From Eledone cirrhosa (Eukaryota): DNA of 64,000 nt. The stretch is from assembly GCA_964016885.1 (NCBI GenBank), contig OZ024743.1, positions 363,878,001 through 363,942,000 on the forward strand, given 5' to 3'. The translations under genes were made by a program, and so were the position numbers. Below, piece after piece: positions 13,641 through 62,655 of the stretch. A model generated the notes under the pieces. That model did no database searches. It saw only the letters and a list, made by a program, of their open reading frames with translations, and was not told the DNA's origin. The first letter of the stretch is position 1, and each line of letters starts with the position of its first letter.

Positions 13641-13944
13641 TGTTTGGATTGATTTATTTTTTTTTCATTATTAAATCTTTTTTTTTATTTTTTAAATAAG
13701 GGTTTTCCGTCTCTTGAGAGCTTGCATTTAGTTTTACTCACGGATTGTGGTGGAGTTTGAGAATATATTTCTGACATTATCCACAAATAGCTGCCAAGAC
13801 TTTTTGACGTTGGTGGGGCTGAGTGTGAAAGATCGTTTGTAACTGCATATCAGTTTTCATGTATGCATACATACATGCGTACATACATACATACATACAT
13901 ACATACATACATACATACATACATACATACATACATACATACAT

Positions 13945-14184: not shown

Positions 14185-14185
14185 C

Positions 14186-18998: not shown

Positions 18999-19004
18999 AT
19001 ACAT

Positions 19005-20622: not shown

Positions 20623-20625
<3 letters not shown>
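19005..20625 (-). mobile_element. Internally deleted RTE element: 5'UTR (about 19900-20625) and ORF C-terminus (about 19005-19845)
   Basis: ORF 19241-19711 HIVRMKESRIPKQLFYGEL...RYKDSIK...WEKIALNR, followed by C2H2-like fingers; 5' motif CCTGTTTCATGGTCGGGT shared with 35.4 and 44.6 kb. Confidence 0.75.
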
Positions 20626-21441: not shown

Positions 21442-21503
<62 letters not shown>

Positions 21504-21752
21504 TTTCTTTATTAACCACAAGGGTTTACATAAAGTAGACATTAAGGACAGTGCAGGACAATACAGGACGGTGCAAATGGGCATTTCTGCGTGTAAAAAA
21601 CAAAAACAGAGGATGTAACAAAAAAATAACAATGAAAAATTCCCCAATAGGGGGGAGACTTCCGAGGGACATTTGTGGAGAAAGCCCAGTTAAAGGCCAC
21701 AGTGACCCTGACCACCAAGGCAAGTGCCCTCTCCCAGTTTTCCACCTTTAAT

Positions 21753-24700: not shown

Positions 24701-25137
24701 CGTTCCAGTCGCCCACTAACACTAAAGAGCGGGACGTTCCAAGAAAGGTCTCCAGACGCCGGAAGAAATCAGGCCGCCCTGCTCCTGTCGGGGCATAGAC
24801 GGCCACTAGCCTGAAAGCTTGCCCGTCTCCGCTGGTCACGTCCAGCACCACCAACTTACCCTCTGGGTCCAGGAAGATGGCCCGTATGGCGAGATCCAAA
24901 CCTCTCCGAAAAAGCACAGCAACTCCCCCCCCCCCCCACCGATCCAGGACGGCTGGGAGATGCGTACACATCGTAGCGGCCGAAGATCGATGCGAAGGCC
25001 CGTGCTTCGGAGATTCTGGTCTCGCTGATGGCCACTACATCTATGTTTAGTGATCTGAGGTCGTTGAGCAGGTGACCCTGCTTCCATAACGACCCCAAGC
25101 CACGCGCATTTATGCTGCCTATTCTGAGTGAGGTCAT
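21753..25137 (-). pseudogene. Tx1 ORF2 (AP endonuclease, reverse transcriptase, C-terminal zinc finger), disrupted
   Basis: SINARGL, ISET, GDWN, LDR, TDH; FRPITLLN, DQSKAFDRV, RQGCPLS, YADD; frameshifts at G runs and small deletions relative to copy 2. Confidence 0.9.
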
Positions 25138-25172
25138 GTTTAAAATAGAGTGGAAAAGATGGGAAAGACCAC

Positions 25173-27288
25173 TTACCGTACTTTTTGTAGACGAAGGATG
25201 GTTTGTCCACCCTTTTCACTTGATCGTCCCTTCGGCTGGTCGTCGGCTCTTCTATGAGTATGTCCGAATATACTCTCCGGTTGAGAGTCCCTCGTAGGTC
25301 TCTGAAATCGCCAACTGCGTTGGGTAATTTCGTTTTGATGTTTGTGTATTGTTTCTGTGCTATTTTTAGCAGTCTTATGTTCGTTGGCGTTTTGATTGGT
25401 CTTGGTATTATGTAGTCGTGCTGTGAAAGGTCTGTGTGTTCAATTATGTAAGTCATTAGTTTCTTGTTGTGTGTATTTATTGCCGTGCATTTGTTTTTCT
25501 GGGGGTGGGGTGTGGTTCTGCTATTTTCTTGTCGTTGTTGCTGGGTGTGTGTGTTTTGTTGTTGTGTTTGCGATGTTGGTGCTTGTGGTGGTGGTGTTGA
25601 AGGTGTTGCTGTTGTTGGCGGTGGGGTTGTCGCCGGTGGTGATGGTGGTGCTAGTGTGGGTGGTGATGGTGTTGGTGGTGTTGCTGCTGTGAGTCTCTTT
25701 GCAGTAGCCTTTACCCTTTTTTCATTTCTTTCATCCCTTTTCGAAGGCGACGATGCGCTGCTTCTGCGTTTGTGCCTTCTTACGACCTTTTGCCATCCCT
25801 CTCCCACCTCACACTCCATGTCTGATTCTGTGAGGTCGGAGAGGGGTACCAGCTCCACTCTTTCACTTGTTGTTGTTGGTGATGTTTGCAGTGGAGTCTC
25901 TGTTGCAGCTGCATTTGGTATTACTGTTGTTGTTGTTAATACTTCCACTGCTGCTGCTGTTCTTGATTTCCGTGGCGTGGGTATGTGTGCCACAGACCTA
26001 TCGTTCCTGGTTGCCGCTGGTCCTGTTGCTGGTAGCTGTGGAGCCGGTTTCGGAAGGAGGGGGGTTTCTCCTTTCTCAGGGTCTTCTCGTTGCAGAAGGC
26101 CCTGAGGTGAGTCTTCGATCCACAGCGAAAGCATTTCGGGCGTTTGCCCTCAACACTTATGGGCAGTTGAGTGCCGTTATCGAAGTCTATCACATCCGGG
26201 ATAGCTTCGATGCACTCCTGGTTGGTTTGGATTAACATCTCAATGGAGGTGCCGACCCAATCTTCTCTTACTTTTTTCTGTACTTGCAGTACAGTTGTTT
26301 TATCCTCGATTCCGACGAGGACAGACGCGGCCAGCCAAGAAGGGGCCATCCCGGGGGGTACGTGGGTCAGTTTGACCCTCACAATTTTTTGCCCACAGTA
26401 GGAGGGCACCAACACCATTTCCTCGCTCCTTAGGGTCACTAAGGATTGAGCCTTTGCCTCCTGGGGTGTGGCAAAAAGCACGTCTACGGTGGCATATTTC
26501 TTGCCTCGGGTGATGTTCGTTTTCCGCTGCCACACAGAGCCTAAGGCTTTTTGTATTTGAGCCTCTGTGGCTCTTTCAACCCTACGGGATTTTGTGCTTA
26601 CTGTACGGTACGTGACCGTACAGTGCTGTTGGGTATCGAAAAAATTTTCGGCTGCCTTGAAGATTGCTCGGTGTCCGGTTTTCGTCACCATCTTCTTCGC
26701 TTCCTCTAATTCCTCATTTGTTATGAGGATGGTTTCCAGGTTCTTTGCGATACCTGCAAACGTGATTGGTTTTTCTTTGCTGCTGTTGCTGTTATTGTTG
26801 TTGTCGTCAGAGCTGCTGTTACTTTTGTTGTTGCTGCAGGTACTACGACTACTGCCGCCGCCGCTGTTGCTGTGGTTGTTGTTGTTGTTGCTGCTGCTGC
26901 TGCTGTGGTTGTTGCTGTTGCTGCTAATGCTGTTGTTGTTTATGCTGCTGCTGATGGTGTTGCGGCTGCTACTGTTGTTTTCCTTGTCACTGTTGCTGCT
27001 GCTGCTGTTATTACGGCTGCTATTGCTATTATTCTTGACGTCAGATGAATGAAATGGGTTTTCGTATTTCCCGCACACCTTTTTCGTCGTTGTCGTCGTG
27101 GAGAAATGTTGCACGCTTTCTACGTGATTTTTCTTTACTGGCGTCGCTTGCGAAAGAGAAGGGAGGGAGAGAGACACATTTAGAGAAGGGAGGGAGAGAG
27201 ACAATCTTCTCTCGGCTGTAGTGACGATTGAGGAAGAAGAAGACGGAATGAGTGGGAGTGACCTATGAAAATTCTTTTTCGTAACCAT
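25173..27288 (-). pseudogene. Tx1 ORF1 (putative RNA-binding domain plus one CCHC knuckle), frameshifted
   Basis: CFRCGSKTHLRAFC; continues in the frame of ORF 24836-26134; true end SEKGGQTILRLQKVR* matches SEKNGKAVLPLREVR* of copy 2. Confidence 0.8.
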
Positions 27289-34339: not shown

Positions 34340-35686
<1,347 letters not shown>

Positions 35687-37830: not shown

Positions 37831-38039
37831 TACTGCTTAACCTGGTGTAGAGTCTGTCACTCCATTTCGGTATTCAATTTTTTTTCTCTTTTTGTTGTAC
37901 TATTTTATGTACTTGTATTTCAATGGATAACATTTTAATTATTTTGAAACTAAAAGATTAGAAAACCAAGCATATATAGAGTATTAAATTAGATAATTAC
38001 AATATATATATATACATATATTGTTATACTTTGGGGGGG

Positions 38040-38290
38040 TCATGTTGCCAATAAGAAACACACGCACCAGTTGCTTTCACTTCAATTTATTATAATAAAT
38101 TTATAAATTTAGGAATTTATAAATTCTGGTTGGTTGGTTGGTTGGTTCCACAACCAGATGGTTGTTTATATATTGTAAAAGTTCTTTCGTCACACATTCT
38201 GTGACCTCTTCAGTGATTGGGGATTCTTTTCTTTGTTTTTGTGCCTCTCCTTTGTTTTGTCCTACGCCATCTTGTTTCTGTGTGTGTGCT
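38040..38290 (-). repeat. Dispersed repeat with a degenerate hammerhead; second copy 63615-63875 (+)
   Basis: CTGAAGA-GGTCACAgaatgTGTGAC-GAAA; stem I is broken here, the GAAA box is mutated in the other copy. Confidence 0.65.
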
Positions 38291-38669
38291 GTGTGCTCAG
38301 TCTGCGCATGCGCCACATCCGGGTGCCTGTGTGTGTTTATATTCGTTTATTTATTTGTTTATTTACATGTTACTGGTTGGTTGTTTGTTCTATGTGCGTG
38401 TGTGTTTTCATTCTGTCCTTAATTGTAAGTTGTGATGTTGCTGTTCCACTCATGTTTTCTATTTAATTTTGGTTGGATTTCATTTATGTTTATTGCCTCT
38501 GTGATTTGTCTAAACATTGCGTCTTTTCTGTGTGTAGATTCTATTTTTATTTCTATGTTCTCTAATTTACCCTTACATAGAAATAAAAATAGAATCTACA
38601 CACATTTACTCTAACATAGAAATAAAAATAGAATCTACACACAGAAAAGACGCAATGTTTAGACAAATC

Positions 38670-38865
38670 ACAGCGTATACACATGTACACATACAACTCA
38701 AAACATACACATCCACACATACAATAACATCCAACACTTGCATGCATACATACATATCTACCTAGTTGATGTTGTGTAAATTCCAATGAGAGAGTCTTGT
38801 GTCTATGTTAGAAACCGACTCTCTCTCTATTGGTAAAACTTTGTGAAATTATAAAACCAAAAGAA
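38670..38865 (+). mobile_element. Family B 3'UTR fragment ending in (TACA)n
   Basis: Matches 18070-18274 and 43825-44022. Confidence 0.85.
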
Positions 38866-39017
38866 CATACATACATACATACATACATACAGACATACAT
38901 ATATACATACATACATAATACATACATACATACATACATACATGCATGCATGCATACATACATACATACATATATACATACATACATAATACATACATAC
39001 ATACATACATACATACA

Positions 39018-39051
<34 letters not shown>

Positions 39052-39196
39052 CATACATACATACATACATACATACATACATACATGCATGCATGCATGC
39101 ATGCATGCATGCATGCATGCATACATACATACATACATACATACATACATACATACATACATACATACATACATACATACATACATACGTACGTAC

Positions 39197-41170
39197 ATTT
39201 GGCCAAAGTCCCACAACCACTAGTAGCTCCTTTTGAACGCCAAACCAAGAACTGGTACACTAATTTGATCTTTAGGGGTGAGAAGGAGCAAATTAAGACT
39301 GATACAATACACTACCAGAAAGGCATCTTTCAGGGTGATAGCTTATCAGTGCTGCTCTTCGTCCTCTCACTAAATCCACTATCATACATGCTCACAAAAC
39401 AAAGTGGTCATAGAAGTGGGTCCAGAAGTATCTACAATCTTTTCTTTGTTGATGACCTGAAGTTAAATGGACCAAATATCAACAATATTAAAAAACAATT
39501 GGACCTCATTACACAATTTTCTGCAAACATCAGAATGAAATTTGGTGATTCCAAAAGTGCATATTTGAGAGTAAAACGTGGAAGGGTTGTGCCCTCCTCT
39601 GGAAATCTAGAGATGAACGGCTTGACAATTCAACCTCTACAGTCAGGTGACAACTACAGATATCTTGGACAGGATGAGAATGTCAGATATGATGGACCCA
39701 TAAATAAGGAGAGAACCAGAACAAAATACCTCAGGAGAGTAAAGAAAATGTGGTCATCAGAACTATCAGTGTACAACAAATACATTGCCCATAATACTTA
39801 TGCCGTGCCAATCCTAACGCCAACATTTGGTCTACTGAACTGGCCATTGGAAGAACTAAGTGAGATGGATGTAAGAACTCGGAAGCTTCTAAGAGTTACT
39901 GGAAACTTTAACATCAATGGTGATGTGGATAGGCTATACTTCTCACGCAAGAAAGTGGCTGTGGTCTAAATTCCATATTAACATCATACGATGTTAATAG
40001 AAAAATAAAGTCAGCAACCATCTTGCCCAGGTTTATGAGCATGAAGAAAATAATTGTTTCTACTTTTGGCACAAGGCCAGCAATTACCAAGTACATTACT
40101 GGTACTTTATTTTATCGACCCCGTAAGGATTAAAGGCAAAGTCAACTTCGGCGGGATTTGAACTCAGACCGTAAAGGGACGTAACTACGCTGGAAAGCAT
40201 GGCGTTGAAGAAAATAATATCATTAGGATCACCACTGATCTGGAAGAGAGATATGGAATAAAGCCTGATATAAATCTCTCTCCCAGGGAAATTGGAAGAT
40301 CCTATTCAATCTTCGAACAAGATAGAAAAAATGGACCAATTTATAGAGAAAGTTATGCATTGGTACATGAGACGAAAAACACCGACCATAATCATTCAAA
40401 AAGCCTGACAGAGAGTTCCGACAAATTTATGACATCCCGCCTTGAAGGATATCTCTATGCAATACAGAACAAGAAATCTCTACTAAATATCTACTACACA
40501 AAAGAAGAGGGCCATCAGTCGACAATAAATATAGGCTTTGTAAGACAAAGATCGAAGATGTTAGCCACATTGTTGCCAATTGCGAAAGAATGTCGCCTCG
40601 CCACTACCTCCCCATGGGACACGATGTAATAACTAGAACCATCTGGAGCGCACTTAATCAAACAAAATTAAAAACAAGTGAGGAGGAATAAGTTGAGATA
40701 GATGGCACTAAAGAATACTGGTGGAACCTGAAATAAAAACTGCGACCAAATTAAAGCACAACCGGCCTGATATTATTGTTTAGGACCACACATTGAAAAC
40801 GTGCTCTGTTGTGGAGATCAGCTGCCCACTTGGTGTCAATGTTTTAAGAAAAATACAAGAGAAGGAGGACATTTAGGGGGGGATTGATGAGGAGTTTGCA
40901 GATCCAGTGTCCAAGATACACTTTCAGCTTCATACCCATCATTATTGGAGCTACAGGTTATATACCAACCCGCTTGGACCAAAGTATAACTGAACTTGGA
41001 TTTGTGGACAAAGAGCGCAGCTCCCTAATTCATAGACTACAAATGGCTGCGATAGCTGGCACCTTCAAAATTTGCATAACATTCTTGCGATTCAAGGGAT
41101 GACAATTTCTTTTCTTTTACAAGAAGGTGGCCGGTAAAAAATGTACTCGAAATTAAGAGAAAGAGAAAAA
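39197..41170 (+). mobile_element. Family A 5'-truncated, degenerate copy
   Basis: LAKVPQPL..GIFQGDSLS..FFVDDLK..YRYLG..TFLRFKG; (TACA)n on both sides; interrupted by a SINE. Confidence 0.9.
40055..40205 (-). mobile_element. tRNA-SINE insertion with 13-bp TSD
   Basis: TSD TGAAGAAAATAAT at 40042-40054 and 40206-40218. Confidence 0.9.
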
Positions 41171-41240
41171 CATACATACATACATACATACATACATACA
41201 TACATACATACATACATACATACATACATACATACATACA

Positions 41241-44022
41241 TGAAGAAGGTAGATGAGAGAAAAGTGATTAATAAAAAATTCAGACGAAACCAAACATCAG
41301 TCTATAGAGATATGAAGGGCAAAATAATATGTGTCACTGAGGCCCCATCCCAGAAAGACATAGATTCCTTTTGGAGCAAAATATGGGATGAAAAGAAGAA
41401 TTTCAACCAAGATGCAGTGTGGCTAAGAGAAATCCGAAAGAACTATTGCTCCTACACTACAACAAAAACATACGAAATAAGTGAGGGTACCCTTGAGACT
41501 GTTATAGGAAAACTCCAATATAAGAAAACACCAGGAAGAGACATGATTGTCGGCTACTGGTACAAAAAAACTGATATTCTATCGGAGGTATCTTACTGAC
41601 CTCTACCAACAAGTTCTTAAGGGAGATACACTTATACCAGAATGGTTGACATTAGCACAACATTACTGGTCTCCAAGAACAAAGACACCCACTTGGCAAA
41701 AAAACTACCGACCCATTGCATGCCAGAACCTGATGTATAAGATGTATACAGCCTGCCTGAACCTATTCCTCCAAGCTCACTGTGAAAATAATAACATCAT
41801 CACAGATGAACAAGCAGCTGGAAAGAAAGGGGTTTAGAGATGTGCTGAACAACTCCTAATCAGCAAAACTGCGATGTCGGAGGTGCGACAACTTAGGAGG
41901 AATATGGCTACAGTCTGGCTGGACTACAGGAAAGCTTTCGATTCTGTTCCCCACTCTTGGATGATAGAGGCCCTCCAACTTGCCAAAGTCCCAGACATTA
42001 TTGTCAGAGCCATAGAGAGGCTGTCTTATTCTTGGGCTACTATCCTAAGGTTAAAGACAGAGAGGGAGGACTCTATTTTCAATGATAAAATAAAATATTG
42101 CAGGGGTATATTTCAGGGGAACAGTCTCTCTGTGATATTATTCATATTCTCATTAAACCCTTTGTCCTTTCTGCTCAAGAAATGTGAGGGATATATCATT
42201 GGCTCACAGGAGGACAGAAATACGGACCTAACCCATAATTTCTTTGTGGACGATCTGAAACACTATGCCAAGAACATGGATGGGATGAAGAAAAATCTTG
42301 ACCTGTTTACAACGTTCTCAAGAGATATAGGAATGGAGTTTGGCCAAGATAAATGCTCATACATGACTGTAAAGCGGGGAAAAACAACAATGCAATCTAG
42401 CAACATTGTCATCAATGGCCTAACTGTTTCAACGATATCTGATGAGGACTGCTACAGATACCTGGGGATAGATGACAACATATCCTATAATGGTATCTGT
42501 AATAAGGAACGCGTAACCAGGGAATACTACACCCTATTAAGAAATATTTGGTCATCGGAAAACAAAACAGTGGCTCACAATGTGTTTGCTGTGCCTGTCC
42601 TAACACCAACGTTTGGAATACTCAATTGGACGATAGACGAAATCCGAGCAGTTGATGTTGGAATTCGAAAAATACTAAACAACACCGGAAACTTCCACAT
42701 CAACAGTGACATAGACCGCCTTTACTTGAAACGTAAGCAGGGAGGCAGAGGCCTAACATCAGTTCAGACATTTGAATGTCGCATCATATCTCTCCAACAA
42801 CATCTACAAACCTCGAAGCGTAGGAGCCCGTTTCTCGAGCAAGTCTATCTGCATGAAACAGATAAGATCATGAGAGTTGGGAAGGAACTTCTCGAGAGAT
42901 ATTCCCTGTGTGATAATCAAAAACTCACACCCAGGGATGTCGCTCAGCAGTATCGCAGTGAATCCATGGATGAAAAACTGCATGCTTATCAGCAAAAAAT
43001 CATGCATGGATATGTTGCCAGGAAGCTCCCGAGTGAGAGTAATATAGATAAGTAAAGTAGTCTATCTTGGACCAACAACCGCTATATTGGCTCCCAGTTT
43101 GAAGGATACGCTTTTGCAATTCAAGAACAGGAGATTAACAGGAAATACCTGATTCACAAAAGAGATAGGGATGCAGGCAAAACACCTAGATGTGATAACA
43201 AGTACAGACTCTGCAGACTTAACATCAATGTCACCCATGTCATAAGCAGCTGTCCAAAGATGTTATCGCGGTACTATCTACCTATGAGGTATGATGTAGT
43301 GGCCAAATCACTGTACAATGCAATCCGTAGAAAAGATAGCCCCGATAATAAACACATTAAAAGCTACAGCAATGTGGAAGACATCCATATACATAATGTG
43401 AAATAGTACTGGTGGAATGTTCCAGTAAAAACCCCCAATAAAATGCAGGCATAACAGACCAGATATTATGATATGGGACAGGGAGAAGAAAACATGCACA
43501 GTAGTGGAAATTAGTTACCCAGCAGATGCCAATATATTATCAAAGATTAGTGAAAAGTAGAATATTTATACAGAACTGATGAGAAATCTGCAGATACTCC
43601 ACTCTGATTACACCTTCAGATTTATGCCTGTGATTATTGGGACACAGGGGTATGTTAGTAACTGCCTCAATACAAATCTTGAGAAGCTAGGCTTCACTGG
43701 AACAGAAAGAACACAACTAGTTAAGAAATTACAAGTACAATCCATTAATGGAACAGTAAAAATATGTAAAACATTCTAAAAATGTTCCATCTAATAACTG
43801 CATATACACATGTACAGATGCAAAGCATATACACATGCACACATACAACTCAAAACATACACATACACACATACAATAACATCCATATCTACACATGCAT
43901 GCATACATACATATCTACCTAGTTGATGTTGTGTAAATTCCAATGAGAGAGTCTTGTGTCTATGTTAGAAACCGACTCTCTCTCTATTGGTAAAACTTTG
44001 TGAAATTATAAAACCAGAAGAA
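41241..44022 (+). mobile_element. Family B 5'-truncated copy
   Basis: Colinear with 15515-18274; ORF 41874-43055 carries the RT motifs; (TACA)n on both sides. Confidence 0.9.
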
Positions 44023-44057
44023 TATACATACATACATACATAAATACATACATACAT

Positions 44058-44206
44058 GGTGGCTGCCAACTCGTTTTCGAGTACGGCCACTACTTTATAT
44101 CCATGTAGGAGAACCCCTACCGATGCGCTGAACGAGTGTGACTTTTTAGTCCAGCCAGCGACTTGAAAACTCTGGTACAAACACTACACTTGTGACAATT
44201 ATTGAC
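44058..44206 (+). mobile_element. 150-bp non-coding unit (copy 2)
   Basis: Near-identical to 13945-14093, preceded by (TACA)n. Confidence 0.8.
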
Positions 44207-44210
44207 ACAT

Positions 44211-44665
44211 AGTGCTGAGCCCATGGTATCATGTGACGACAAGTGCAGAGAGATCTCCAGATATAAAGCAATGCCTGTACCGTGAAGCTTTTATAGTGAG
44301 CAAAGGCACTGCACAAAGCCAGTCCCACTCTCTTAACCAAGATGATATTTACCAAAAAGAAGAACAAGTCAACATCATTGGATACCACCAGGGTTGCAGG
44401 TGTTATATCAGAGTTTTCCTTCTCCTAGAATTCTGCTTTGACAAAGGCTAAGGAGTCATCTCTCCCGGTGATTTTGGATGGCCATTGACTCTTAAGAGCT
44501 CCTTTGCCCTTTTGACAGGTTTTGTTTTTAGTCCTGCAGGATGTCCAAAGTCACCCTCCTCACCAAGAAACCTTGGTGGGGTTGCCAGTTTAGTTACCAA
44601 CGACCCGACCATGAGACAGGTTGTTCTGGGATACATGTTACCAGTAGCACCAACTGGTGACCTGA
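44211..44665 (-). mobile_element. RTE 5'UTR fragment inserted in the TACA tract
   Basis: Homologous to 35330-35484; contains GGAGAAGGAAAACTCTGA, typical of RTE 5' regions. Confidence 0.7.
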
Positions 44666-44746
44666 CATACATACATACATACATACATACATACATACAT
44701 ACATACATACATACATACATACATACATACATACATACATACATAC

Positions 44747-47700
44747 AATGGCGACCGTTGTGGTCAGTGTCCGATAATCGGACGTGTGTAATTACGGCTT
44801 ACATGAAGGCAACATACCATATATTGGAAAAAGTTGAGCTACATTACGCGGTAAGATTACATACAATAATTCTACATAAGTGTTTGAACTGTAAGTGTGT
44901 TGTAAAACACCTATTTATATGAACGATACATGCACTTATGATATATGAACGATACATACACTTATGATATATGAACGATACATACACTTTAACATATAAA
45001 TGCAACGTTGTTATATTACATTTGTAAAGAAATATGCATGTAACGTTTTCGATTCAGAAACAAAATCATAAGTGTTTGAACTGTGAATATGTTATGAATA
45101 TGTTGTAGAACACCTATTTATATGAATGATACATAAACTTTAACATATAAATACAGCGTTGTTATATTATATTACATTCATAAAGAAATATACTAAGTAA
45201 CAGTTTTTGTTATTTCTTTTGTTTTGTTCTCGATTCAAACGATTCAAAAACAACGTTTAAAACACAGTTGTAGAATTAAAAACTAACTGAAACGAAATAT
45301 TACCCAAGCTGTGAATAACTTTAAATTTGATTCTGACAGAACTTTGTCGAAACTTTTAAAGAAGATGATCGACTATTTTTAAAAATAAATACAAAATATT
45401 AGTGAATAGACGAACTCATCATGGCAAAATGTATAAGTTGTATACAGTGAACTACGAGCTTAACAAAGAATTATATGAAGCATGCAAACAATCTGAACCC
45501 CAAAAGTTCTGTTTTATGCAAAGGCTAAAAACTTTATGGAACTCCAAACATTCAGAATTAGACTTTTCTCCAAAGCATTTAAATGAACAGGCAAAACGTA
45601 TCATTAGATGTAAATTGATACATCTAACGGAATTGAGTGATACTATAAATACAGCCCTTAGACAACCACTCCACTTCCACTCACAGACAAAGAGAATGGC
45701 CAGCTAAATCTACAGTGAACAGCTCACCAACAATTTTGCTGAAATCCATCCCACTTCCACTGAAGAACAGCGAGAATGGTCAGCTAACTCTAGTAGTAAT
45801 TGTCACCACATCAACAACGAGGCTGAAATTCATGACTCTACTGTACAAACAGAACACCAAGTGATATGGGATGATATGTTTCAAGAGATACACAGCCTTA
45901 ATGTGAGTGACAGACCATACAACACCAGAATCAGTAAAGAACCCACTAAATTGGAATTGGAAGCGGTGAACGAAATAGCTGACAACTATCTGAAGGCTAT
46001 ACGATCTATTGGTGTAGAAACGACATTTGAAATGCTTAACATTTTGTTATATGTTTCAGCTGTCACATTGCTATCATATAAAAAAAACATCTAAAACCAC
46101 GCAATCAAGATACAAACAAAAAGCCTGGACCAGCGTGGATGCGAAATTTAAAAAGTAAATTTTTGTCCCTGAGACGAAGTATCTCACACATCGCAATCAT
46201 TATTAAATGCAACATAGAGAGCAACTTCACACGACACCAAGAAGACCTAAAAAAAAAATTAGAGAGACGATTTGGAGATACAAAATTTAAAACTTTAAAC
46301 TCCAAATTATACCAGTTGAAACAACAACTCACAGCTACAACAGAAAAAACTAAAATATAAGTCAACAGCACATAAACGACAAGTGCTAAATAGATTGTTT
46401 GCCAGAGATCCTAAATCAGTTTATCGCAGCTTCGGTGGCAAAAGCTCAATCTCTGTAAATGACACCCCTTCAAAAGAACAGGTTGAGAGCTACTGGAGAT
46501 CTGTATGGGAAACGGATGACGGATTCAATAGACAAACTAAATGGCTAAAAGAACTGGAACAGGACTACTGCCAACATGTCCAGACAAAACAATATGACAT
46601 AGATGGGTCAATACTGGAAACAGCTCTACAGAAAATGTCGAATAGGAAATCACCAGGCCCAGACTTTATCACAGGATACTGGTTGAAGAATTTTACTTTC
46701 TATCGGCAAGATCTCATACGGCTGTTTACAGAAATCATTAAAGGCACACAAGAACTGTATACATGATGTTTTGACAGGCTATTGGGCGGTAATTTTTAGC
46801 CAAACCACCCTTGCTAAAAATTACCGCCCAATAGCCTGTCAAAACATCATTATAAATTATATACTGGGTGCCTTAACCTGTTCTTACAGGATCACTGTGC
46901 TACCAACAACATTATAACACCTGAGCAAGCTGGTGGAAAGAGGGAGGTGTGGGGTTGCATAGATCACCTACTAACTAATAAAATGATTCAAGAAAAAACA
47001 ACAAAGAATCGCAGAAACATGACTGTGGTGTGGCTGGACTATCAAAAAGCATTTGATAGTGTACCTCATGAGTGGATTGTTAAGGCTTTACAGTTAGCCA
47101 AAGTCCCACAACCACTGGTAGCTGCTGTTGAACGTCTAACCAAGAACTGGTATACCAATTTGATCCTTAGAGGTGAAAAGGAGCAAGTTAAGACTGATAA
47201 GATACATTACCAGAAAGGCATCTTTCAGGGTGATAGCTTGTCAGTGCTACTCTTCGTTCTCTCACTAAATCCACTATCTTACCTACTCAGGAAACAAGGT
47301 GGACAAAGAAGTGGGTCCAGAAGTATCTCCCATCTTTTCTTTGTTGATGACCTGAAGTTGTATGGGCCAAATATCAAGAAACAATTGGACCTCATTACAC
47401 AATTTTCAACAGACATCAAAATGAAATTTGGTGAGTCCAAGTGTGCATATTTGGCAGTAAAACGTGGAAGAGCTGTGCCCTCCTCTAGAAATCTAGAGAT
47501 GAACGGCCTGACAATACAACCTCTACAGTCAGGTGAAAACTACAGATATCTTGGACAGGATGGGAATGTCAGATATGATGGACCCATAAATAAGGAGAGA
47601 ACCAGAACTGAATACCTCAGAAGAGTAAAAGAAATATGGTCATCAGAACTGTCAACGTACAACATATACATTGCCCACAATACTTATGCTGTGCCAATTC

Positions 47701-48945
47701 TAACGCCAACATTTGGCCTGCTGAACTGGTCATTGCAAGAACTAAGTGAGATGGATGTTAGAACTCGCAAACTTCTCAGTGTTACTGGGAACTTTAACAT
47801 CAATGGTGATGGGGATAGGCTATACTTCTCACGCAAGGAAGGTGGCCGGGGTCTAAAATCCATATTAACATCATGTGAGACCCGGATAGTAACACCGAAG
47901 CAACATCTTCAACAGAGGAAAAAGGTTGGCAACCATCTTGCCCAGGTTTATGAGCATGAAGAAAAAAATATCATTAGGATAGCCACTGGTCTGGAGGAGA
48001 GATATGGAATAAAGCCTGATATAAATCTCTCACCCAGAGAAATCGGAAGATCCTATTCAATGTTCAAACAAGATGAAAAAATTGACCAAATTTACAGAAA
48101 AAGTTGTGCATGGATACTTAAGACGTAAAACACAGACCATAGAGGGGATAAACCATTCAAAAAGCCTGGCATGGAGTTCCGACAAGTTTATGACATCACA
48201 CCTTGAGGGATATCTCTATGCAATACAGGAACAAGAACTCCCTACCAAATATCTGCTGCACAAAAGGGGAGGGCTATCAGCTGACAATAAATGTAGGCTA
48301 TGTATAACAAAGATCGAAGATGTAAGCCACATTGTTGCCAGCTGCGAAAGAATGTCATCTCGCTATTACCTCCCCATGAGACACGATGGGATAGCTAGAA
48401 CCATCTGGAACCCACTTCGGAAAACAAAATTAACAACAAACGAGGAAGAATATATTGAGACAGATGGCACTAAGGAATACTGGTGGAACCTGAAAATAAA
48501 AACGGCCACCAAATTAAAGCAAAACCGTTCAGATATTGTTGTTTGGGACTAACATTGAAAAGGTGTTCTGTTGTGGAGATCAGCTGCCCACTTGATGTAA
48601 ACGTTGTCAGAAAAATACAGGAGAAGGAGGACATCTACCAACCATTGATGAGGAGTTTACAAATCCAGTATCCAAGATACACCTTTAGCTTCATACCCAT
48701 CATTATTGGTGCTACGGGTTATATACCAACCCGCTTGGACCAAAGTATGACAACTTGGATTTGCGTACAAAAAGCGCAGCTCCCTAATTCATAGTCTACA
48801 AATGACTGCGATAGCTGGGACCTTCAAATTTTGCAAAACATTCTTGCGATTCAAGGTATGACAATTTCTTTTCATTTACAACCTTGCCACCAGGAAGGTG
48901 GCCGGTCAATAAGAAATATACTCGAAATTAAGAGAAAGAGATAAG
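44747..48945 (+). mobile_element. R4/Dong-like family A, apparently full-length, frameshifted
   Basis: ~650-bp 5'UTR with internal tandem repeats; ORF pieces 45402-48860 (ELNKELYEAC...FMQRLKTLWNSKH, RT, CRLC..HIVASC, RHD, VEISCP); (TACA)n on both sides. Confidence 0.9.
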
Positions 48946-49113
48946 ATACATACATACATACATACATACATACATACATACATACATACATACATACATA
49001 CATACATACATACGTACGTACATACATACATACATACATACATACATACATACATACATACGTACATACGTACATACATACATACATACATACATACATA
49101 CATACATACATAC

Positions 49114-49298
49114 AATGGACCCTGAGCAAGATGGTTCGATAACATCCAGGATCTCGGCTTGTCTCCTTTGGGGATCCAGCATGATCAACTAGAGTCAACT
49201 GCTTCTTTCAGGACCCGCTAGAATGACTCTGACCCCACGACCCTTCCAGGAATATGTTGGTAAAGAAGAAGAAGAAGAAGAAGAAGAAGAAGAAGAAG
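49114..49298 (+). mobile_element. Short RTE-like 3' end with (GAA)n tail
   Basis: ARWFDNIQDLGL... then PRPFQEYVGK followed by (GAA)n. Confidence 0.5.
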
Positions 49299-49304
49299 AT
49301 TGTA

Positions 49305-51870
49305 ACAGACCACCACACCATCACTACCACCACACCACCACACCCACCAATACATCGACAAACATCCCTACCACCACACCATCACACCCACCAATACAGC
49401 CACCACCATCACTACCACCACACCATCACACCTACCAATACAGCCACCACCATCACTACCACCACACCACCACACCCACCAATACAGCCACCACCATCAC
49501 TACCACCACACCACCACTACTACCACCAATACAGCCACCACCATCACTACCACCACACCACCACACCCACCAATACAGCCACCACCATCACTACCACCAC
49601 ACCACAACACCCACCAATACAGCCACCACCATCACTACCACCACACCACCACACCCACCAATACATCGACAAACATCCCTACCACCACACCATCACACCC
49701 ACCAATACAGCCACCACCATCACTACCACCACACCATCACACCCACCAATACAGCCACCACCATCACTACCACCACACCATCACACCCACCAATACAGCC
49801 ACCACCATCACTACCACCACACCACAACACCCACCAATACAGCCACCACCATCACTACCACCACACCACCACACCCACCAATACATCGACAAACATCCCT
49901 ACCACCACACCATCACACCCACCAATACAGCCACCACCATCACTACCACCACACCATCACACCCACCAATACAGCCACCACCATCACTACCACCACACCA
50001 TCACACCCACCAATACAGCCACCACCATCACTACCACCACACCACAACACCCACCAATACAGCCACCACCATCACTACCACCACACCACCACACCCACCA
50101 ATACATCGACAAACATCCCTACCACCACACCATCACACCCACCAATACAGCCACCACCATCACTACCACCACACCACCACACCCACCAATACAGCCACCA
50201 CCATCACTACCACCACACCATCACACCCACCAATACAGCCACCACCATCACTACCACCACACCACAACACCCACCAATACAGCCACCACCATCACTACCA
50301 CCACACCACCACACCCACCAATACAGCCACCACCATCACTACCACCACACCATCACACCCACCAATACAGCCACCACCATCACTACCACCACACCACCAC
50401 ACCCACCAATACAGCCACCACCATCACTACCACCACACCACCACACCCACCAATACAGCCACCACCATCACTACCACCACACCACCACACCCACCAATAC
50501 AGCCACCACCATCACTACCACCACACCACAACACCCACCAATACAGCCACCACCATCACTACCACCACACCGCAACACCCACCAATACAGCCACCACCAT
50601 CACTACCACCACACCACCACACCCACCAATACAGCCACCACCATCACTACCACCACACCACAACACCCACCAATACAGCCACCACCATCACTACCACCAC
50701 ACCACCACTACTACCACCAATACAGCCACCACCATCACTACCACCACACCACCACACCCACCAATACAGCCACCACCATCACTACCACCACACCACAACA
50801 CCCACCAATACAGCCACCACCATCACTACCACCACACCACAACACCCACCAATACAGCCACCACCATCACTACCACCACACCACAACACCCACCAATACA
50901 GCCACCACCATCACTACCACCACACCACAACACCCACCAATACAGCCACCACCATCACTACCACCACACCACCACACCCACCAATACAGCCACCACCATC
51001 ACTACCACCACACCACAACACCCACCAATACAGCCACCACCATCACTACCACCACACCACAACACCCACCAATACAGCCACCACCATCACTACCACCACA
51101 CCACCACACCCACCAATACAGCCACCACCATCACTACCACCACACCACAACACCCACCAATACAGCCACCACCATCACTACCACCACACCACAACACCCA
51201 CCAATACAGCCACCACCATCACTACCACCACACCACCACACCCACCAATACAGCCACCACCATCACTACCACCACACCACCACACCCACCAATACAGCCA
51301 CCACCATCACTACCACCACACCACCACTACTACCACCAATACAGCCACCACCATCACTACCACCACACCACAACACCCACCAATACAGCCACCACCATCA
51401 CTACCACCACACCACAACACCCACCAATACAGCCACCACCATCACTACCACCACACCACCACACCCACCAATACAGCCACCACCATCACTACCACCACAC
51501 CACAACACCCACCAATACAGCCACCACCATCACTACCACAACACCACCACTACTACCACCAATACAGCCACCACCATCACTACCACCACACCACCACTAC
51601 TACCACCAATACAGCCACCACCATCACTACCACCACACCACCACTACTACCACCAATACAGCCACCACCATCACTACCACCACACCATCATTACTACCAC
51701 CAATACAGCCACCACCATCACTACCACCACACCACCACACCCACCAATACAGCCACCACCATCACTACCACCACACCACCACACCCACCAATACAGCCAC
51801 CACCATCACTACCACCACACCACCACACCCACCAATACAGCCACCACCATCACTACCACCACACCACAAC
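49305..51870. repeat. 44-bp C/A-rich tandem repeat, roughly 58 units
   Basis: Unit AGCCACCACCATCACTACCACCACACCACCACACCCACCAATAC (e.g. 50281, 50325). Confidence 0.95.
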
Positions 51871-52788
51871 ACCCACCACTACCACCACCACTACACCACC
51901 ACACCATCACTACCACCACCACTACACCACTACCACCAACACTACACCACCACACCACCACTACACCACTACCACCACCACCACTACACCACCACACCAC
52001 CACTACACCACCACTACACCACTACCACCAACACTACCACCACCACTACACCACTACCACCAACACTACACCACCACACCACCACTACACCACTACCACC
52101 ACCACTACACCACCACACCATCACTACCACCACCACTACACCACTACCACCAACACTACACCACCACACCACCACTACACCACTACCACCACCACTACAC
52201 CACCACACCACCACTACACTACCACTACACCACTACCACCAACACTACCACCACCACTACACCACTACCACCAACACTACACCACCACTACACCACTACC
52301 ACCACCACTACACCACCACACCACCACTACACCACCACTACACCACTACCACCAACACTACCACCACCACTACACCACTACCACCAACACTACACCACCA
52401 CACCACCACTACACCACTACCACCACCACTACACCACCACACCACCACTACACCACCACTACACCACTACCACCACCACTACACCACCACACCACCACTA
52501 CACCACCACTACACCACTACCACCAACACTACCACCACCACTACACCACTACCACCAACACTACACCACCACACCACCACTACACCACTACCACCACCAC
52601 TACACCACCACACCACCACCACACCACCACTACACCACTACCACCACCACTACACCACCACACCACCACTACACCACCACTACACCACTACCACCACCAC
52701 TACACCACCACACCACCACTACACCACCACTACACCACTACCACCACCACTACACCACCACACCACCACTACACCACCACACCACCTA
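51871..52788. repeat. Lower-order CAC/CTACAC repeat continuing the satellite
   Basis: Mosaic of CACCAC, CACTAC and CTACAC motifs with no G on the plus strand. Confidence 0.9.
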
Positions 52789-55816: not shown

Positions 55817-57815
55817 ATGGCTAATTCCCCTCTGCACGAAGCAGCTGAAAGCCTTCCTCACAAAATAACACCTCACACCGACACCACCATTGTAAATGTT
55901 ACTACGTTTGCCAACACAAAAAAAAATATAAGCAGTAGCAATATTTTAAATTTGTCTCAGGCAGACATTCATTTCCCGCCATTACCAATGACTGCAGGTG
56001 TTAAACCCTCCACCACCACCACCACCGCAACAACCACCACCACCACCACCACCGCGACAACAGAAACAAAAGAAGAAAAAAATAAATTAACTCGTGACGT
56101 CGAAATGAAATCAAGCAAAATGGACTCTTCCCCACCAAAGACGACTGACGTCACAACCACCACAACTGAAAATAAAATTAATATTAACGATAGCAACAAC
56201 AACAACAATGACATTATAAAACCGACCCTCAGTTTCGCCATCGTAGCAAAACAATTCGAAGCGTTCACGGTAACCCAAGAAGATTTAGAAAATGCCAAAC
56301 AAATGGTAAAGAAAGATGGGTACAGGGTCAGCCTCACCCCCCCCCCCCCCCCCCCACCTAATAAAATGGAGCATCGGCGCCTGTGCACCGTGTCGTATAG
56401 AACAATAAATGCAAAATCGCGCCGAGTGGAACGGGCATCCGAGTCCCAAATCCAAAAAGCTTTGGGACATGTGTGGGCAAGAAAAACCCACATCAGACGT
56501 GGGCAAAAGTATGGAACCGTGGATGTGTTCTTTGAAACACCAGAGGAGGCTAGAGAACACTCCATGGCCCCATTAAAAAGTGACGACCTCACACTCGTCC
56601 CAAGCTATTGTGGCCAGAGACTCGTAAAGATCAGGGTGACCCACGTTCCACCGGCCATCGAAATTCCCTGGCTAATAGCAGCTGTCCTCACCGGCATCGA
56701 AGCCAACACGAAAATAATAGCAGTAGCAAAAGAAAAGCAGGAAAACTGGTCCGGATCTGGGATGGAGCTCCTGATCCAAGCGGACCAAAAAAGCATTGAG
56801 GAGATCCCAGAAGTAATAGACCTCACTGACGGCAGCCACCTCACGGTAATTGTCGAGGGCAGAAGACCTAGGTGTGTCGTTTGTGGTGAAGGAACCCACC
56901 TAAGGGCTTTCTGCCCTCAGGCTAAAAGGTTGAGGCCACCTCTCCTACCCACCCCAGTGACAAAACCATCAACACCACCAGTAGCAGAGATGGCAGCAAC
57001 AACTGTAGCAGCAACAACAGAAGCAACTATAACAGCAACAACCCCAGCAACAGTAGCAAAACCAACACCACTACCACCACCAGCAAAACCAACACCACCA
57101 CCACCCAACGCTTCAGAACTAGCACCAGCGCCTACACCCTCCACCACACCACAACCAAAACTAACGGCTGTGGAGGATTTTCCACTCCCCGGCCTATCAC
57201 AACTGGAGACAGATTGTGACGACGAGGAGTGGGAAACGATATCCGGAAGAAAAAAAAAGAAACCAAAAAAGAAAAAAATCTCTTCCTTCCCCCTCCAAAA
57301 ACAAAATACAGAGGGAAACAAATAAACTAAGAAACAAAAACGTTAGGACAGATATGCCACCATCCACACCAGCATCACCAACCCCATCAACCCAAACACC
57401 AACACCATCACCATCATTATCCCCAGCACCACCATCACCAACAACACAAAAGTCACCAAAATTCGAAACAGAAACAAACCCACAACAAACGCAAACAAAA
57501 CAAAACAACCAAAACGATACACACTACACAGCATTAAATTTGAACAACAAGCAATTATTACACTACATCCAACACAACACCAGCATCACAGAAAAAGACT
57601 ACACAACAACCCCAAAATTCACACCACCGCCACACATACAAATCACTCGCATCACACAGAAAACGTACATGACACTAAAACAAAAATTCCCCAAAGACAT
57701 CGGAGACTTCCGACAAGCACTCTCCAGGAGGATTTATAAGGACATCCTTCCTGAGGAGGCCACAAGCAGTGAAAAGAATGGAAAAGCCGTCCTTCCCCTA
57801 CGAGAAGTAAGATAA
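55817..57815 (+). CDS. Tx1 ORF1 (CCHC knuckle protein), one frameshift in the A-rich run near 57250-57280
   Basis: ORFs 55757-57325 and 57216-57815 are jointly colinear with copy 1 ORF1; CVVCGEGTHLRAFC. Confidence 0.8.
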
Positions 57816-57849
57816 GTGGTCTTTCCCATCTTTTCCACTCCTTTTCAAC

Positions 57850-60800
57850 ATGACCTCACTCAGAATAGGCAGCATAAATGCGCGTGGCTTGGGGTCGTCA
57901 TGGAAGCAGGGCCACCTGCTCAACGACCTCAGGTCACTAAACATAGATGTAGTGGCCATCAGCGAGACCAGAATCTCCGAAGCACAGGCTTTCGCACCGA
58001 TCTTCGGCGGCTACGATGTGTACGCATCTCCCAGCCGTCCGGGATCGGGGGGAGGAGTTGCTGTGCTTTTTCGGAGAGGTTTGGATCTTGCCATACGGGC
58101 CATCTTCCTGGACCCAGAAGGTAAGTTGGTGGTGCTGGACGTGACCAGCGGAGACGGGAAAGATTTCAGGTTAGTGGCCGTCTATGCCCCGACAGGAGCA
58201 GGGCGGCCTGATTTCTTCCGGCGTCTGGAGACCTTTCTTGGAACGTCCCGCTCTTTAGTGTTAGTGGGCGACTGGAACGGGATCTTAGATGCACGCTGGG
58301 ATTGTGTCGGATTAGTGGATAGGGAAGGAGGGTGCAAGAGTCTCACCAACCTGCTCAGACGTTTTGAACTGTCTGACAGGTACCGAATGGATTTCCCGAA
58401 TGTACCAATGTGGACTTGGACAAATCGCATAGGGTCATCCAGATCATATCTAGATAGAGTATTTTGTAGGGAAATAGATAGGTCTAGCATAGGCTGTCCA
58501 CAATTCAAGATAGTCAGCTACACGGACCACAAATTCGTGATCTGTGTGCTTGACTTAGATAGGCTTCATAGACGAGGACCCGGCTACTGGAAGCTAAACG
58601 CGTCCTTACCAGCGCGCAAGGCCTACAGAGACCGGATTAGCGAACTAGTTAAGCGGGCGTTGACGGGGGCCATCGTCAACAACAAGTGGTGGTTTGCTCT
58701 GAAAAGAGCAATTAGAATAGAGTCCATTAGGTTTAGTAAGACTTTAGCAATAGAGAAAAATAGAGCAGAGGGAGAATTAGTTAGAAAATTAGATGAGGCG
58801 CTTAGCAAAGGCATCGCGACCGACGTACTTGCGGCGAAATTGGCCCTTGACCAATTCTTCAATGCAAAGCACGAAGGCTGCGTTGTCAGAGCTAGGGTGC
58901 GTGCTCTCAGACACGAGGGGACGAAAGCCGTTCAATGGGCCCGAGTGGCGGAGGCGCGTCGTGGCAACAAAGCCACGATCCGGTCTTTGGTGGACCACGA
59001 CGGGCGCATGCTACTCGATCCCGGGCAAATGTGTGAAGCTTTTCAGCGACACTTCGCTCAACTGTTCGGGGGCAGTGGCGGGCCGGATCGAGGGATGGAC
59101 TTTAGTGTCTACCTCGACGGACTGCCGCGGCTTTCGGCCACTGAGGCGGAGTGTTGCGAAAAGCCGATAACAACCGCTGAAGTACGGGATGCAATGACTA
59201 GTTGCACAAGGGGCAAATCGCCTGGTTTGGATGGTCTGCCCTATGAACTTTACGTACAAATGCCAAACTTGTTCGGAGGCCTCTTGGCGGACGTCTACTG
59301 CAACTGGCAACAGAACGGGAGAATTCCCAGCTCTGTGAGCCGAGGAGCGGTGGCGCTGCTGAGAAAGGATCCGAACAAGGGGGATAACATAGATAATTTT
59401 AGGCCCATAACTCTGCTAAACACAGAGTTCAAGATTTTGGCCAAGGTGCTAGCAAAGAGGTTGGCGCTTGTCGTTGGTGGTCTGGTGGGAGAGGCACAGA
59501 CATGCGCCATTCCCGACAGATCCATCCACGACAACCTCCACCTCATGCGATACATCGTAGAGAGGGTAGCTAGGGAACCTGGCACGGGTGGGTCTTTGAT
59601 CAATTTAGATCAGTCGAAAGCCTTCGATAGGGTCGACCATCGTTACCTAGCGGCAGTCCTGAGGGCGGCTGGCTTTGGGCCCGTCTTCAGAGGCTGGATC
59701 GCTGCCATGCACAGCGACATCTGCTCTGTAGTGAGAGTGAACGGTCACCTTTCGGAACCGTTCAACATCATGCGCTCGGTCCGCCAAGGATGTCCCCTCT
59801 CGTCCCTATTGTACGTATTGACTCTCGAGCCATTACTGCACAAACTGGAGACGTTGAGGGGGGTCCCGCGCGAACTAGGATGCGGAAGATCCGTGTCAGC
59901 ATATGCCGACGATGTCACCGTAGTGGTGTCGAGCGCCAAACACATCGAGGCGATCGGCACTACACTAAGAGAATACGAAGCGGTGACAGGAGCAATGATC
60001 AACCAGGAAAAGTCAGTGGGCCTGCAGCTCGGCACCTGGAGAGGCAGGTCCATGCCGTCCAACAGCGTCGTCGGGCGCTGGACGGACGGACCGGTTAAAT
60101 TGCTAGGGGTCTGGTTCGGTCCAGACCTCCAGACGGACAAAAACTGGGACGAGGTGACGAGCAGGGTGGCTTCTCTCACCCAGAAATGGGCCGAGAGGAA
60201 GCTATCCCTGAAAGGTCGAGCGGAGGTGGCGAATGCGTACATCGCATCCGTCATCTACTACCGCCTGACCGTCGTACCTTGTCCTAAGCCCCGCCTGACT
60301 GCGCTGGAGCGTTTGCTCTTTCGCTTCTTGTGGAAGGGACGCGCTCCGATGTCAGGCGGTCCATCTGCTGTCAACACCCGCTACGTGGAGGGCTGGGCAT
60401 GCCGTGGCTGATGATGCGCAGACACGCGCTCAGGCTACGACATCTCCACCTCTTCCTCGACGGTGATCAGGTGTGGTCGCCGTTTGCAAGACACGTTTTT
60501 CCCCAGCTCGTCTCCTTGACGGAGCTGCAGTCCTGGGTCAAGCGAAGACCGAGAGGGAGCGCTTGGAGACTGGAATGTCTTCAGGCGCTCACAGCCCTCG
60601 ACCAATCGGGCAATGTGATCGGTGGAAACTCCACCTTGGCGTTCTATAGGGGATTAGTGGAGGGGAAGAGCGACGACGTACTTGGAGAAACTCTAGGCGT
60701 CGACGAAAATCAACTAGCCAATCTCTTCGGAAGGACTTTCGGGCCGGGGCCTATGGACAACTTCCAGAAATCCCTGGCCTGGCAGTGCTACCGAGGAGCT

Positions 60801-61268
60801 TTGCCAGTTCGGGATAAACTCTACAGGCATGGAGGTGCCGTCAGCCGGGCATGTCCGAGATGCGCGCAGGGCGACGAAACCGTCCTGCACGCACTCGTCC
60901 AGTGTCCGAGCATTGCTGACTTGTGGGTTTATGTCGAACACCTGCTGTCACGTGTAGGACCTATCCAGCTATCAGCTGAGTCCATCGTGAGGATTGCCCC
61001 GCCCCCTTCCTTTAGCCTGGAAGGGCAGGCAGTTTTTATCTGTCTGGTGGCCATGGCGAAAGAGATAGTATGGTGGACACGTTTGAAAGGGCTGAAGACG
61101 AGCACTTACCTCTTCGGTGATGCCCTGATTAACTTTTTCAAATTTCATTTGAAAAGGAAAATCAGGGTAGAGAGGGAAGTGCTCTCTTCCCAGCATTTTG
61201 TTGAAAGATGGGTGAGAGAAGCAAGTATGGCCCGAATGAATGGGCCTTCTCTGAGTATGTGTCTGTAA
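57850..61268 (+). CDS. Tx1 ORF2: AP endonuclease, reverse transcriptase, C-terminal zinc finger; 1-bp frameshift near 60350
   Basis: 853-aa ORF with APE and RT motifs (YADD) continuing into ORF 60330-61268 (GGLGMP, CPRC...ETVLHALVQC); copy 1 has the missing G (ATGGTCAGG). Confidence 0.92.
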
Positions 61269-61531
61269 ATTAAAGGTGGAAAACTGGGAGAGGGCACTTG
61301 CCCTGGTGGTCAGGGCCACTGTGGTCTTTTAATGGGCTTTCTCCACAAATGTCCCTTGGAAGTCTCCCCCCTATTGGGGAATTTTTTTTTTTTTTTTTTT
61401 TTTTTTTTCTTTGTTATTTTATTCCAACCTCTGTTTTTTTACACGCAGAAATGCCCATTTGTACCGTCCTGTATTGTCCTGTACTGTCCTTAATGTCTAC
61501 TTTATGTAAACCCTTGTGGTTAATAAAGAAA

Positions 61532-61575
<44 letters not shown>

Positions 61576-62655
61576 TTATATATATGTAGCTTTAAATAGA
61601 TTTCAAGCTATGAGAGCATAAGAACTGTCTATATGTTTATAAGAGGGAGTAAGGAGAAACAACCTCCGGGTGATGCCTCTGCATGAAAACTAAACAGGTT
61701 GGTGCTAACATAATGTAGTGTCTCGATTTAAAATAATAAATCAATCTTCCTAAGTATTTTGAAGTAAAACATACCAATTTCTGGATACCTGCAGATGAGC
61801 ACAGAAATGGAAATGTTCACTTATTGTTGCGAAACAGATTTGAGTTTTGAAATTTAAATTTGTCCGGGCATCACGGCTGTTGCCAATATGGATTTGTTTT
61901 TATTGATTTATTATTTTAAATCGAGACAGGCAAACTAATTTAATTGGTATTTTTCAATCTAGCTAACTTGGTCATTTGCAATACAAACACTTATATACTT
62001 GTATTAGTGTTTATCATATATTCATTTGTATATATATATATATATATTACTATATTTAGCTCTAGACTTAGCTATTGACCAGTTAATTTTATTGTTCATT
62101 TTTTGTCGATTCTATTAAATGATGAATAGCCCCTGTTTATTTTAACATGTCTATTGAGCACTCTTATTCGATATGTGTTTTTGCCACATTTTTCCGAATA
62201 TTTTTGCGGATATAAAGGTTATCTCCCTTGCTGAAATCCATGTGCGTATTTTTAGCCTGGGTCTTGTCTTTTCATCCATTCGGACGAAGCTCGTTGATGA
62301 AGTAACTCCAGTCCCCCGATTGCCTGTAAGTCTTATATTTTTATATGAGCTGATAGATGACGGTTTAAGGATTTACAGAAACCCAAGAAGCTAGATATTC
62401 CATCTCTCTAGTGGGTCCGGGTATGCATTTTACATTCATTTCATTTATTGATTTATTGATAATTTATCTGAGTGTCCCGAATCTTCCATATCGAACTTTT
62501 CGGTTATTTGGTTGATTGTAGACATATTCTACGTGTGACGGTATTTTAACGATAGTTATAGCTCTAATTTATTTGAATTATAGAGCCCTCTGCCGCTCAT
62601 CTCGAATTTTGTTTATCGTGAACTCGTGCGCCGATTTTTCGATACTCGATTATTC

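Follow-up and report, generated by a model that had tools for sequence, protein, structure and literature searches.

A second (TACA)n retrotransposon array in Eledone cirrhosa: probable Dong/R4-type families on one strand and a putative RTE derivative on the other

A window of 64,000 nucleotides from Eledone cirrhosa (assembly GCA_964016885.1, contig OZ024743.1, positions 363,878,001 to 363,942,000 of the forward strand) contains two arrays of retroelements set in (TACA)n microsatellite sequence. The second, array 2 (window positions 38669-49114), is a chain of retrotransposons in a single (TACA)n, with families A and B of long interspersed elements (LINEs) on one strand and element C on the other, and it probably grew by separate, target-specific insertions. 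A and B are likely members of the Dong/R4 clade, and C appears from its sequence to be a derivative of the RTE clade. The first-pass annotation had described a second TACA array that differs from array 1 in order, truncation points and level of decay, and all of this was confirmed: array 2 comprises five elements and (TACA)n runs of 333, 71, 32, 79 and 169 bp, far above chance, as ACATAC occurs in 1.3-1.7% of 18-25-nt windows at random places. It had also placed every component on the plus strand, which is correct for A and B, but C lies on the minus strand. That a second class of retroelement occupies the other strand is the most interesting point. The arrangement recurs: across the genome, two Dong-type families lie head to tail and unrelated RTE-type elements lie antisense to them in shared (TACA)n.

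Array 2 begins with the last ~200 bp of B, a piece of its 3' untranslated region (3'UTR; 38669-38865, plus strand) with 2.1% substitutions relative to a natural copy at locus L265. The elements had been described as separated by (TACA)n, which is true between members; upstream of this first piece, however, there is no TACA run, and the piece adjoins the end of another multicopy element. A plus-strand spacer of 333 bp with TGCA and TATA interruptions (38866-39198) leads to a 5'-truncated A copy (39199-41169, plus strand; RVT_1 E-value 1.8e-07), which starts at about position 2366 of 4225 and is the most decayed copy, with 10.9% substitutions and 10 frameshifting indels relative to an intact copy at L258. 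Nested in it, and absent from the earlier list of components, is an element with a 13-bp target-site duplication (40050-40206) that is probably, by its likeness to octopus elements, a minus-strand short interspersed element (SINE). A perfect plus-strand spacer of 71 bp (41171-41241) precedes a 5'-truncated B copy (41242-44023, plus strand; RVT_1 E-value 1.2e-16), starting at about position 1330 of 4088, with 4.0% substitutions and 4 frameshifting indels relative to L265. The next two spacers, also read on the plus strand, enclose a full-length copy of C (611 bp; 44056-44666, minus strand): one of 32 bp (44024-44055) lies tail to tail between the 3' ends of B and C, and a perfect one of 79 bp (44667-44745) lies head to head between the 5' ends of C and the second A copy. 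That copy (44746-48945, plus strand; RVT_1 and zf-RVT matches) is full length with a broken reading frame (4.4% substitutions and 11 frameshifting indels relative to L258) and is followed by a terminal plus-strand run of 169 bp (48946-49114). What had been listed as a 150-bp unit is in fact the 611-bp element C, of which the first 155 bp alone match array 1, where the C copy is 5'-truncated. The full-length A copy also carries a short inverted duplication (46758-46854) that other copies do not have.

Flanks of de-duplicated copies in the 3.0-Gb assembly point to a preference for (TACA)n. The 18 nt next to the 3' end contain ACATAC in 55 of 64 A copies and 57 of 62 B copies (background 1.3%), and the 25 nt upstream of 5'-truncated copies contain it in 45 of 52 cases for A and 31 of 44 for B (76/96 together; background 1.7%). 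Because the truncation points of these copies are scattered, the upstream repeat is not part of the element. C is flanked by alternating purine-pyrimidine repeat at 64/78 of its 5' ends and 63/78 of its 3' ends (background 8%), and it uses both (AT)n and (ATGT)n. Composite repeat patterns agree on both sides of single copies. A search for empty sites, in which 97 of 237 arrays had usable flanks, gave one case for C, the paralogous pair L060 and L184. There the empty site already holds the repeat, and the (TA)n on the 5' side of the filled site is much longer.

The orientation of neighbouring elements, defined as those within 400 bp of each other, follows a strict rule when A and B are scored as Dong and the RTE-clade elements as RTE. 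Every Dong-RTE pair is on opposite strands (74/74) and every Dong-Dong pair on the same strand (46/46). RTE-RTE pairs are on the same strand in 38 of 44 cases, and the remaining six consist of inverted C pieces or pairs. The 3' flank of C holds GTATGT in 52 of 82 copies and ACATAC in 1 of 82. Genome-wide, C is followed by (ACAT)4 once, as against (GTAT)4 in 39 of the 100 listed of 14,818 matches (counted by eye).

A and B are two related families, 49% identical over 961 amino acids, and both have RVT_1 matches. Intact A copies consist of one stop-to-stop frame of 1174 amino acids (RVT_1 E-value 3e-24), and of the best 150 matches in the genome to a segment of A, 21 lie in open frames of this length. 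Twelve full-length A copies have a median identity of 99.8% (66 pairs); thus, A moved recently. Among 150 scored matches, no complete B frame was found, and a 1134-residue frame considered as an intact B was rejected, as it is a 5'-truncated B read in frame with the upstream microsatellite. Exact 3'-end patterns, which give lower bounds on copy number, occur at least 4,618 times for A and at least 5,505 times for B. The families may already be catalogued in Repbase or Dfam.

Each of the two families encodes one protein with a reverse transcriptase, a CCHC knuckle and a restriction-like endonuclease (RLE). The A C-terminus carries the motifs CRLC..H..C, RH and PD..E..K; a zf-RVT match in A falls just below the curated cut-off. 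A profile of 111 relatives matches R2 proteins at positions 376-1137, from the reverse transcriptase to the C-terminus, with an E-value of 8e-76. Pfam gave no match in the A protein to Exo_endo_phos, the apurinic/apyrimidinic endonuclease (APE) domain, nor to an N-terminal zinc finger or Myb domain, and the N-terminal 63 residues align with a Bombyx relative (30%, E-value 7e-06). Members of the Dong/R4 clade have a divergent Myb/SANT-like domain at the N-terminus, with no zinc fingers. The closest named relative of the A protein is from Argonauta hians (66%) and is the sister of A on the tree. Proteins from Bombyx and Anolis are 37-40% like A and carry no clade label; we take them to be Dong/R4. 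In a quick tree with one distant outgroup, the Bombyx and Anolis proteins lie outside the 47-row subclade that contains A and B. A and B are likely RLE-type LINEs of the Dong/R4 clade, a label that remains indirect because the relatives are unlabelled by clade and the tree is a quick version. An Rfam scan of positions 38000-49500 gave 61 weak matches, none at gathering score, and no ribozyme. When the 5' ends of A, B and C and the 3' end of C were folded, only the B 5' end was better than shuffled sequences (z -3.0). This B 5' end (window positions 14185-14300, outside the stretch scanned with Rfam) may be a self-cleaving or structural RNA.

An exact 29-mer of C, counted by a pattern search of the genome, occurs 23,421 times, so that C has at least that many copies. 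Nearly all copies at 88% identity or above keep the low-coordinate end and are cut variably at the other, which is the 5' truncation of an element on the minus strand. Its minus strand carries an RTE 5'UTR, a zinc-finger remnant and an RTE 3' end, with no long reading frame and with stops in all three sense frames. C matches family R, an autonomous RTE family with APE, reverse transcriptase and C2H2 domains and with flanks of the same kind as those of C. Positions 193-399 of C are ~73% like the R 5'UTR, upstream of the APE frame of R, and the resemblance to R extends to the zinc-finger remnant (28 nt, 86%) and to the final 34 nt (85%). A protein search with the 57-residue zinc-finger remnant gave no matches. 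All 150 of 150 scored matches to R are 99-100% identical in protein, most of them in frames of ~1200 amino acids. As judged from its sequence, C is a non-autonomous bipartite RTE derivative, likely mobilised by an RTE-clade protein such as that of the intact family R. The other long LINE of the window was rejected as a partner of C. R itself (L136-L155), young and flanked by (AT)n/(ATGT)n, is a candidate active element. A second bipartite RTE derivative, family D (~540 bp), has the exact 3' end of R and lies antisense in TACA arrays; copies are found at L104:952-1488, L132, L023 and L124, and a D 5' piece lies in the window at 35336-35483.

How might such arrays form? By analogy with R2-type target-primed reverse transcription, the A/B protein would nick the TGTA strand and prime there, and for this reason copies run into CATACATA without exception. 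The repeats that C runs into are always GTAT or ATAT; for C, therefore, the TACA strand would serve as primer. Since repeat is left on both sides of each insertion, an occupied site remains open to insertion, now at two targets instead of one. The claim that each insertion regenerates the target is therefore plausible in a weak sense: the insertion splits one run into two usable runs. Polymerase slippage likely re-lengthens these runs. A likely requires at least ~45 bp of pure repeat on the upstream side and would cut close to the downstream end of the run; the long 5' and short 3' runs of young copies (see below) would follow from this. Hypothetically, the 3' ends of read-through RNAs may pair with the nicked strand and perhaps fix the strand of each family.

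Several observations count against this interpretation. On the target side, no empty-site allele was found for any A or B insertion among the 97 of 237 arrays with usable flanks. The bias toward long runs at the 5' side is significant for A and C (Wilcoxon p 0.0004 and 0.003) and not for B (p 0.37), and it is reversed for D. With regard to the partner of C, R is only 73-86% like C, the exact R 3' end is found in D and not in C, and the real partner may be another RTE family. The genome-wide orientation count for C given above covers one of two possible repeat phases. Finally, the best match of the array-1 C copy is tied with array-2 C (98.7% over 150 bp), and in some arrays elsewhere (L031, L131/L132, L251) units recur with identical truncation points, which means that local tandem duplication has a share in array growth.

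The tie between the two C copies, together with the presence of the same three components 20 kb apart, would fit an origin of array 2 by segmental duplication or rearrangement of array 1, but we consider this exceedingly improbable. The first-pass annotation had favoured independent, repeated insertions and had named shared truncation points and private mutations as the signs of duplication. Neither was found: the two arrays have no truncation point in common, and no rare variant is shared among the 4/5 A and 3/3 B window copies compared (de-duplication removed one A and one C, and C was outside this test). Order and flanks differ as well, the same mix of elements occurs on many contigs, array-2 C has 100% matches elsewhere over 150 bp, and the nearer relatives of the A and B copies are elsewhere in the genome. 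For the A and B ends of array 2, the best matches in the genome are on other contigs, and array 1 is not among the top 40. Against loci L011-L155, 40 of which were chosen for their likeness to array-2 copies, the array-1 copy A18367 is 97.8% identical to L099 and 94.0% identical to array-2 A (rank 33/48), and array-2 B ranks 25/58 among the relatives of array-1 B. The proposed check of divergence among copies likewise agrees with independent insertion: substitutions relative to natural reference copies range from 0.3 to 10.9% and are unordered along either array. Near the B 3'UTR, common truncation points say little about duplication, because unrelated loci recur at B positions 3859-3862. Short B copies recur there in L031, L243, L251, L261 and L262, where the 3'UTR is TACA-like; they could reflect microhomology-driven truncation or a short non-autonomous B derivative. 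A different alternative is that TACA is a 3' tail made by each element and that clustering is passive, in tolerated heterochromatin, with no sequence targeting. For RTE elements, the formation of microsatellites at the 3' end is indeed on record (PMC2887409). This explanation is nevertheless very improbable, because the repeat is also found 5' of randomly truncated copies, the composite patterns match across single copies, the empty C site of the L060/L184 pair already holds the repeat, and passive clustering predicts no strand rule.

The question of what drives growth is less one-sided. At 17/30 A, 20/29 B and 5/25 C loci, the 3' end has another element within 400 bp, as compared to 1.3% of random points (loci were taken in genome order, and one B locus without an anchor was dropped), and 13 of 19 intact young A copies are inside arrays, mostly beside more diverged copies. 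The array-length survey that had been suggested (59 arrays, 18 of them censored) shows over-dispersion, which is consistent with feedback; heterogeneity among sites would look the same. The latter is the basis of a reading without feedback, in which a few long TACA runs of unequal accessibility are saturated by tens of thousands of insertions. An evenly spaced 600-kb sample holds only 7 pure runs of at least 40 bp, and genome-wide there are 8,053 runs of at least eight TACA units (one of four start phases), so that targets and insertions are similar in number. On the one hand, a split-target model beats an equal-rate Poisson model by 10.7 log-likelihood units. On the other hand, a pure geometric distribution fits slightly better still, and array-size shape therefore singles out no one cause. 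We regard saturation without feedback as possible, if rather doubtful. We also considered that the A/B protein itself writes the long pure 5' (TACA)n by reiterative copying and that the fresh target is then used by RTE elements. Pure runs of at least 40 bp are found at 15/19 of the 5' junctions of young intact A copies and at 2/19 of the 3' junctions (Fisher p 5e-05), in 67/133 spacers touching an A or B 5' end and in 42/210 others, and 5 of the 7 such runs in the 600-kb sample adjoin these elements, as do 18 of the 52 shorter runs. However, the spacer count includes 30 loci picked for long runs, B shows no 5' bias, young copies in composite repeats lack a long pure 5' run (L256, L260, L264), and TA, CA, GA, AAT and AAG microsatellites of this genome can be 50-120 bp long as well, which shows that slippage is enough for runs of this length. 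Repeat-writing is thus unlikely, and we are similarly sceptical of its fullest form, in which A/B adds 45-95 bp of pure (TACA)n in the manner of telomerase, most long TACA microsatellites are its products and the RTE clade colonises them from the opposite strand. If true, it would create a self-growing niche for two clades at thousands of sites. Given the composite-repeat copies without a pure run and the equally long microsatellites of other kinds, we favour a cut close to the downstream end of a long run, followed by slippage, as the cause of the asymmetry.

The annotation had compared these arrays to telomeric retrotransposon arrays. HeT-A, TART and TAHRE form head-to-tail chains of 5'-truncated retrotransposons. 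They add to the chromosome end (PMC7265360). In the TACA arrays, by contrast, insertion is internal, two strands are used and copy ages are unordered along both arrays (2.1, 10.9, 4.0 and 4.4% from reference copies for the successive A and B copies of array 2); the window also lies in a 379-Mb contig, 15 Mb short of its end. Growth by end extension of the HeT-A/TART type therefore does not apply here, and the telomeric analogy holds instead for TRAS/SART and MoTeR, whose insertions lie inside telomere repeats. In Bombyx mori, TRAS and SART enter one simple repeat, that of the telomere, in opposite directions (PMC7265360). The opposite-strand sharing of one repeat is the same here (the 74/74 pairs above), which we treat as a working likeness and not as membership. 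TRAS and SART, which we take to belong to the R1 clade, are both APE-type and telomeric, whereas here an RLE-type and an APE-type clade meet in dispersed interstitial microsatellites. MoTeR elements of Magnaporthe combine autonomous and non-autonomous copies in mixed head-to-tail arrays with target-repeat spacers (PMC7367193); unlike array 2, their arrays are telomeric, have a single orientation and are partly extended by recombination.

RLE elements are mostly target-specific (PMC4640811). The Dong/R4 architecture described in PMC7998251 fits A and B: a single frame with reverse transcriptase, CCHC knuckle and RLE, no APE and no N-terminal zinc finger, and a microsatellite target. Dong in the narrow sense targets (TAA)n in insects, molluscs and cnidarians (PMC7998251, PMC3812793, PMC2887409), whereas A and B are flanked by (TACA)n. 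Waldo of insects targets ACAY repeats, ACAT/ACAC (PMC3812793), the same repeat class as A and B; Waldo is APE-type and A/B are RLE-type, so that a common target would be convergent. Bov-A, RTESINE and WALLSI3 join an RTE 5' part to an RTE 3' end and have no reading frame (PMC5786205). C shares this bipartite design but, unlike them, is found mainly within (AT)n/(ATGT)n, with repeat on both sides. In the literature covered, mostly without subscription papers, we found no TACA target for Dong and no strand-split Dong/RTE arrays, and no description of strict microsatellite targeting by RTE elements was found. Dong-R4 families and RTE elements have been reported in octopus (PMC9115989, PMC13282606); the words "target" and "nested" are absent from the main text of PMC13282606, and its supplements may bear on the question. 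Thus, microsatellite-targeting LINEs are known, but a TACA target in a likely Dong lineage and its strand-split sharing with RTE elements appear to be new.

Other repeats lie around the two arrays. The end of the multicopy element that adjoins the first B piece of array 2 (38018-38673) includes a 175-bp hairpin; the same arrangement is found in L061, and the element is Penelope-like by look only. A minisatellite with a 44-bp unit and 78 copies (49316-52780), open in three plus frames, begins 200 bp past array 2. Array 1 is interrupted by a 730-bp fragment of another repeat (13137-13865; ~66% to four loci) and is flanked by old RTE fragments (11640-11917, and 19000-20624 on the minus strand), the right one of which lies tail to tail with the last A piece. 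Outside the arrays, a LINE with APE and reverse transcriptase domains and an (ATT)n tail is present in two copies that are 94% alike (21455-25220, minus strand, and 57768-61579, plus strand); it is probably L1/Tx1-like.

The findings described here bear on both the host genome and the elements themselves. The Dong-R4 and RTE families of octopus have been discussed as young and active, with no targets given in the portions of text examined, and the shared use of (TACA)n likely explains, at the level of sequence, some of the unevenness in the transposon landscape of octopus genomes. For TACA microsatellite markers in these animals, it means that flanks will often be multicopy. In the likely Dong lineage, the difference between TAA and TACA would represent a target switch, in which the role of a putative N-terminal Myb-like domain is testable through near-identical intact copies, and work on R2-based insertion gains a natural point of comparison in an intact RLE element whose target is non-genic. 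In these arrays an RLE clade and an APE clade divide one repeat by strand, and they do so outside telomeres.

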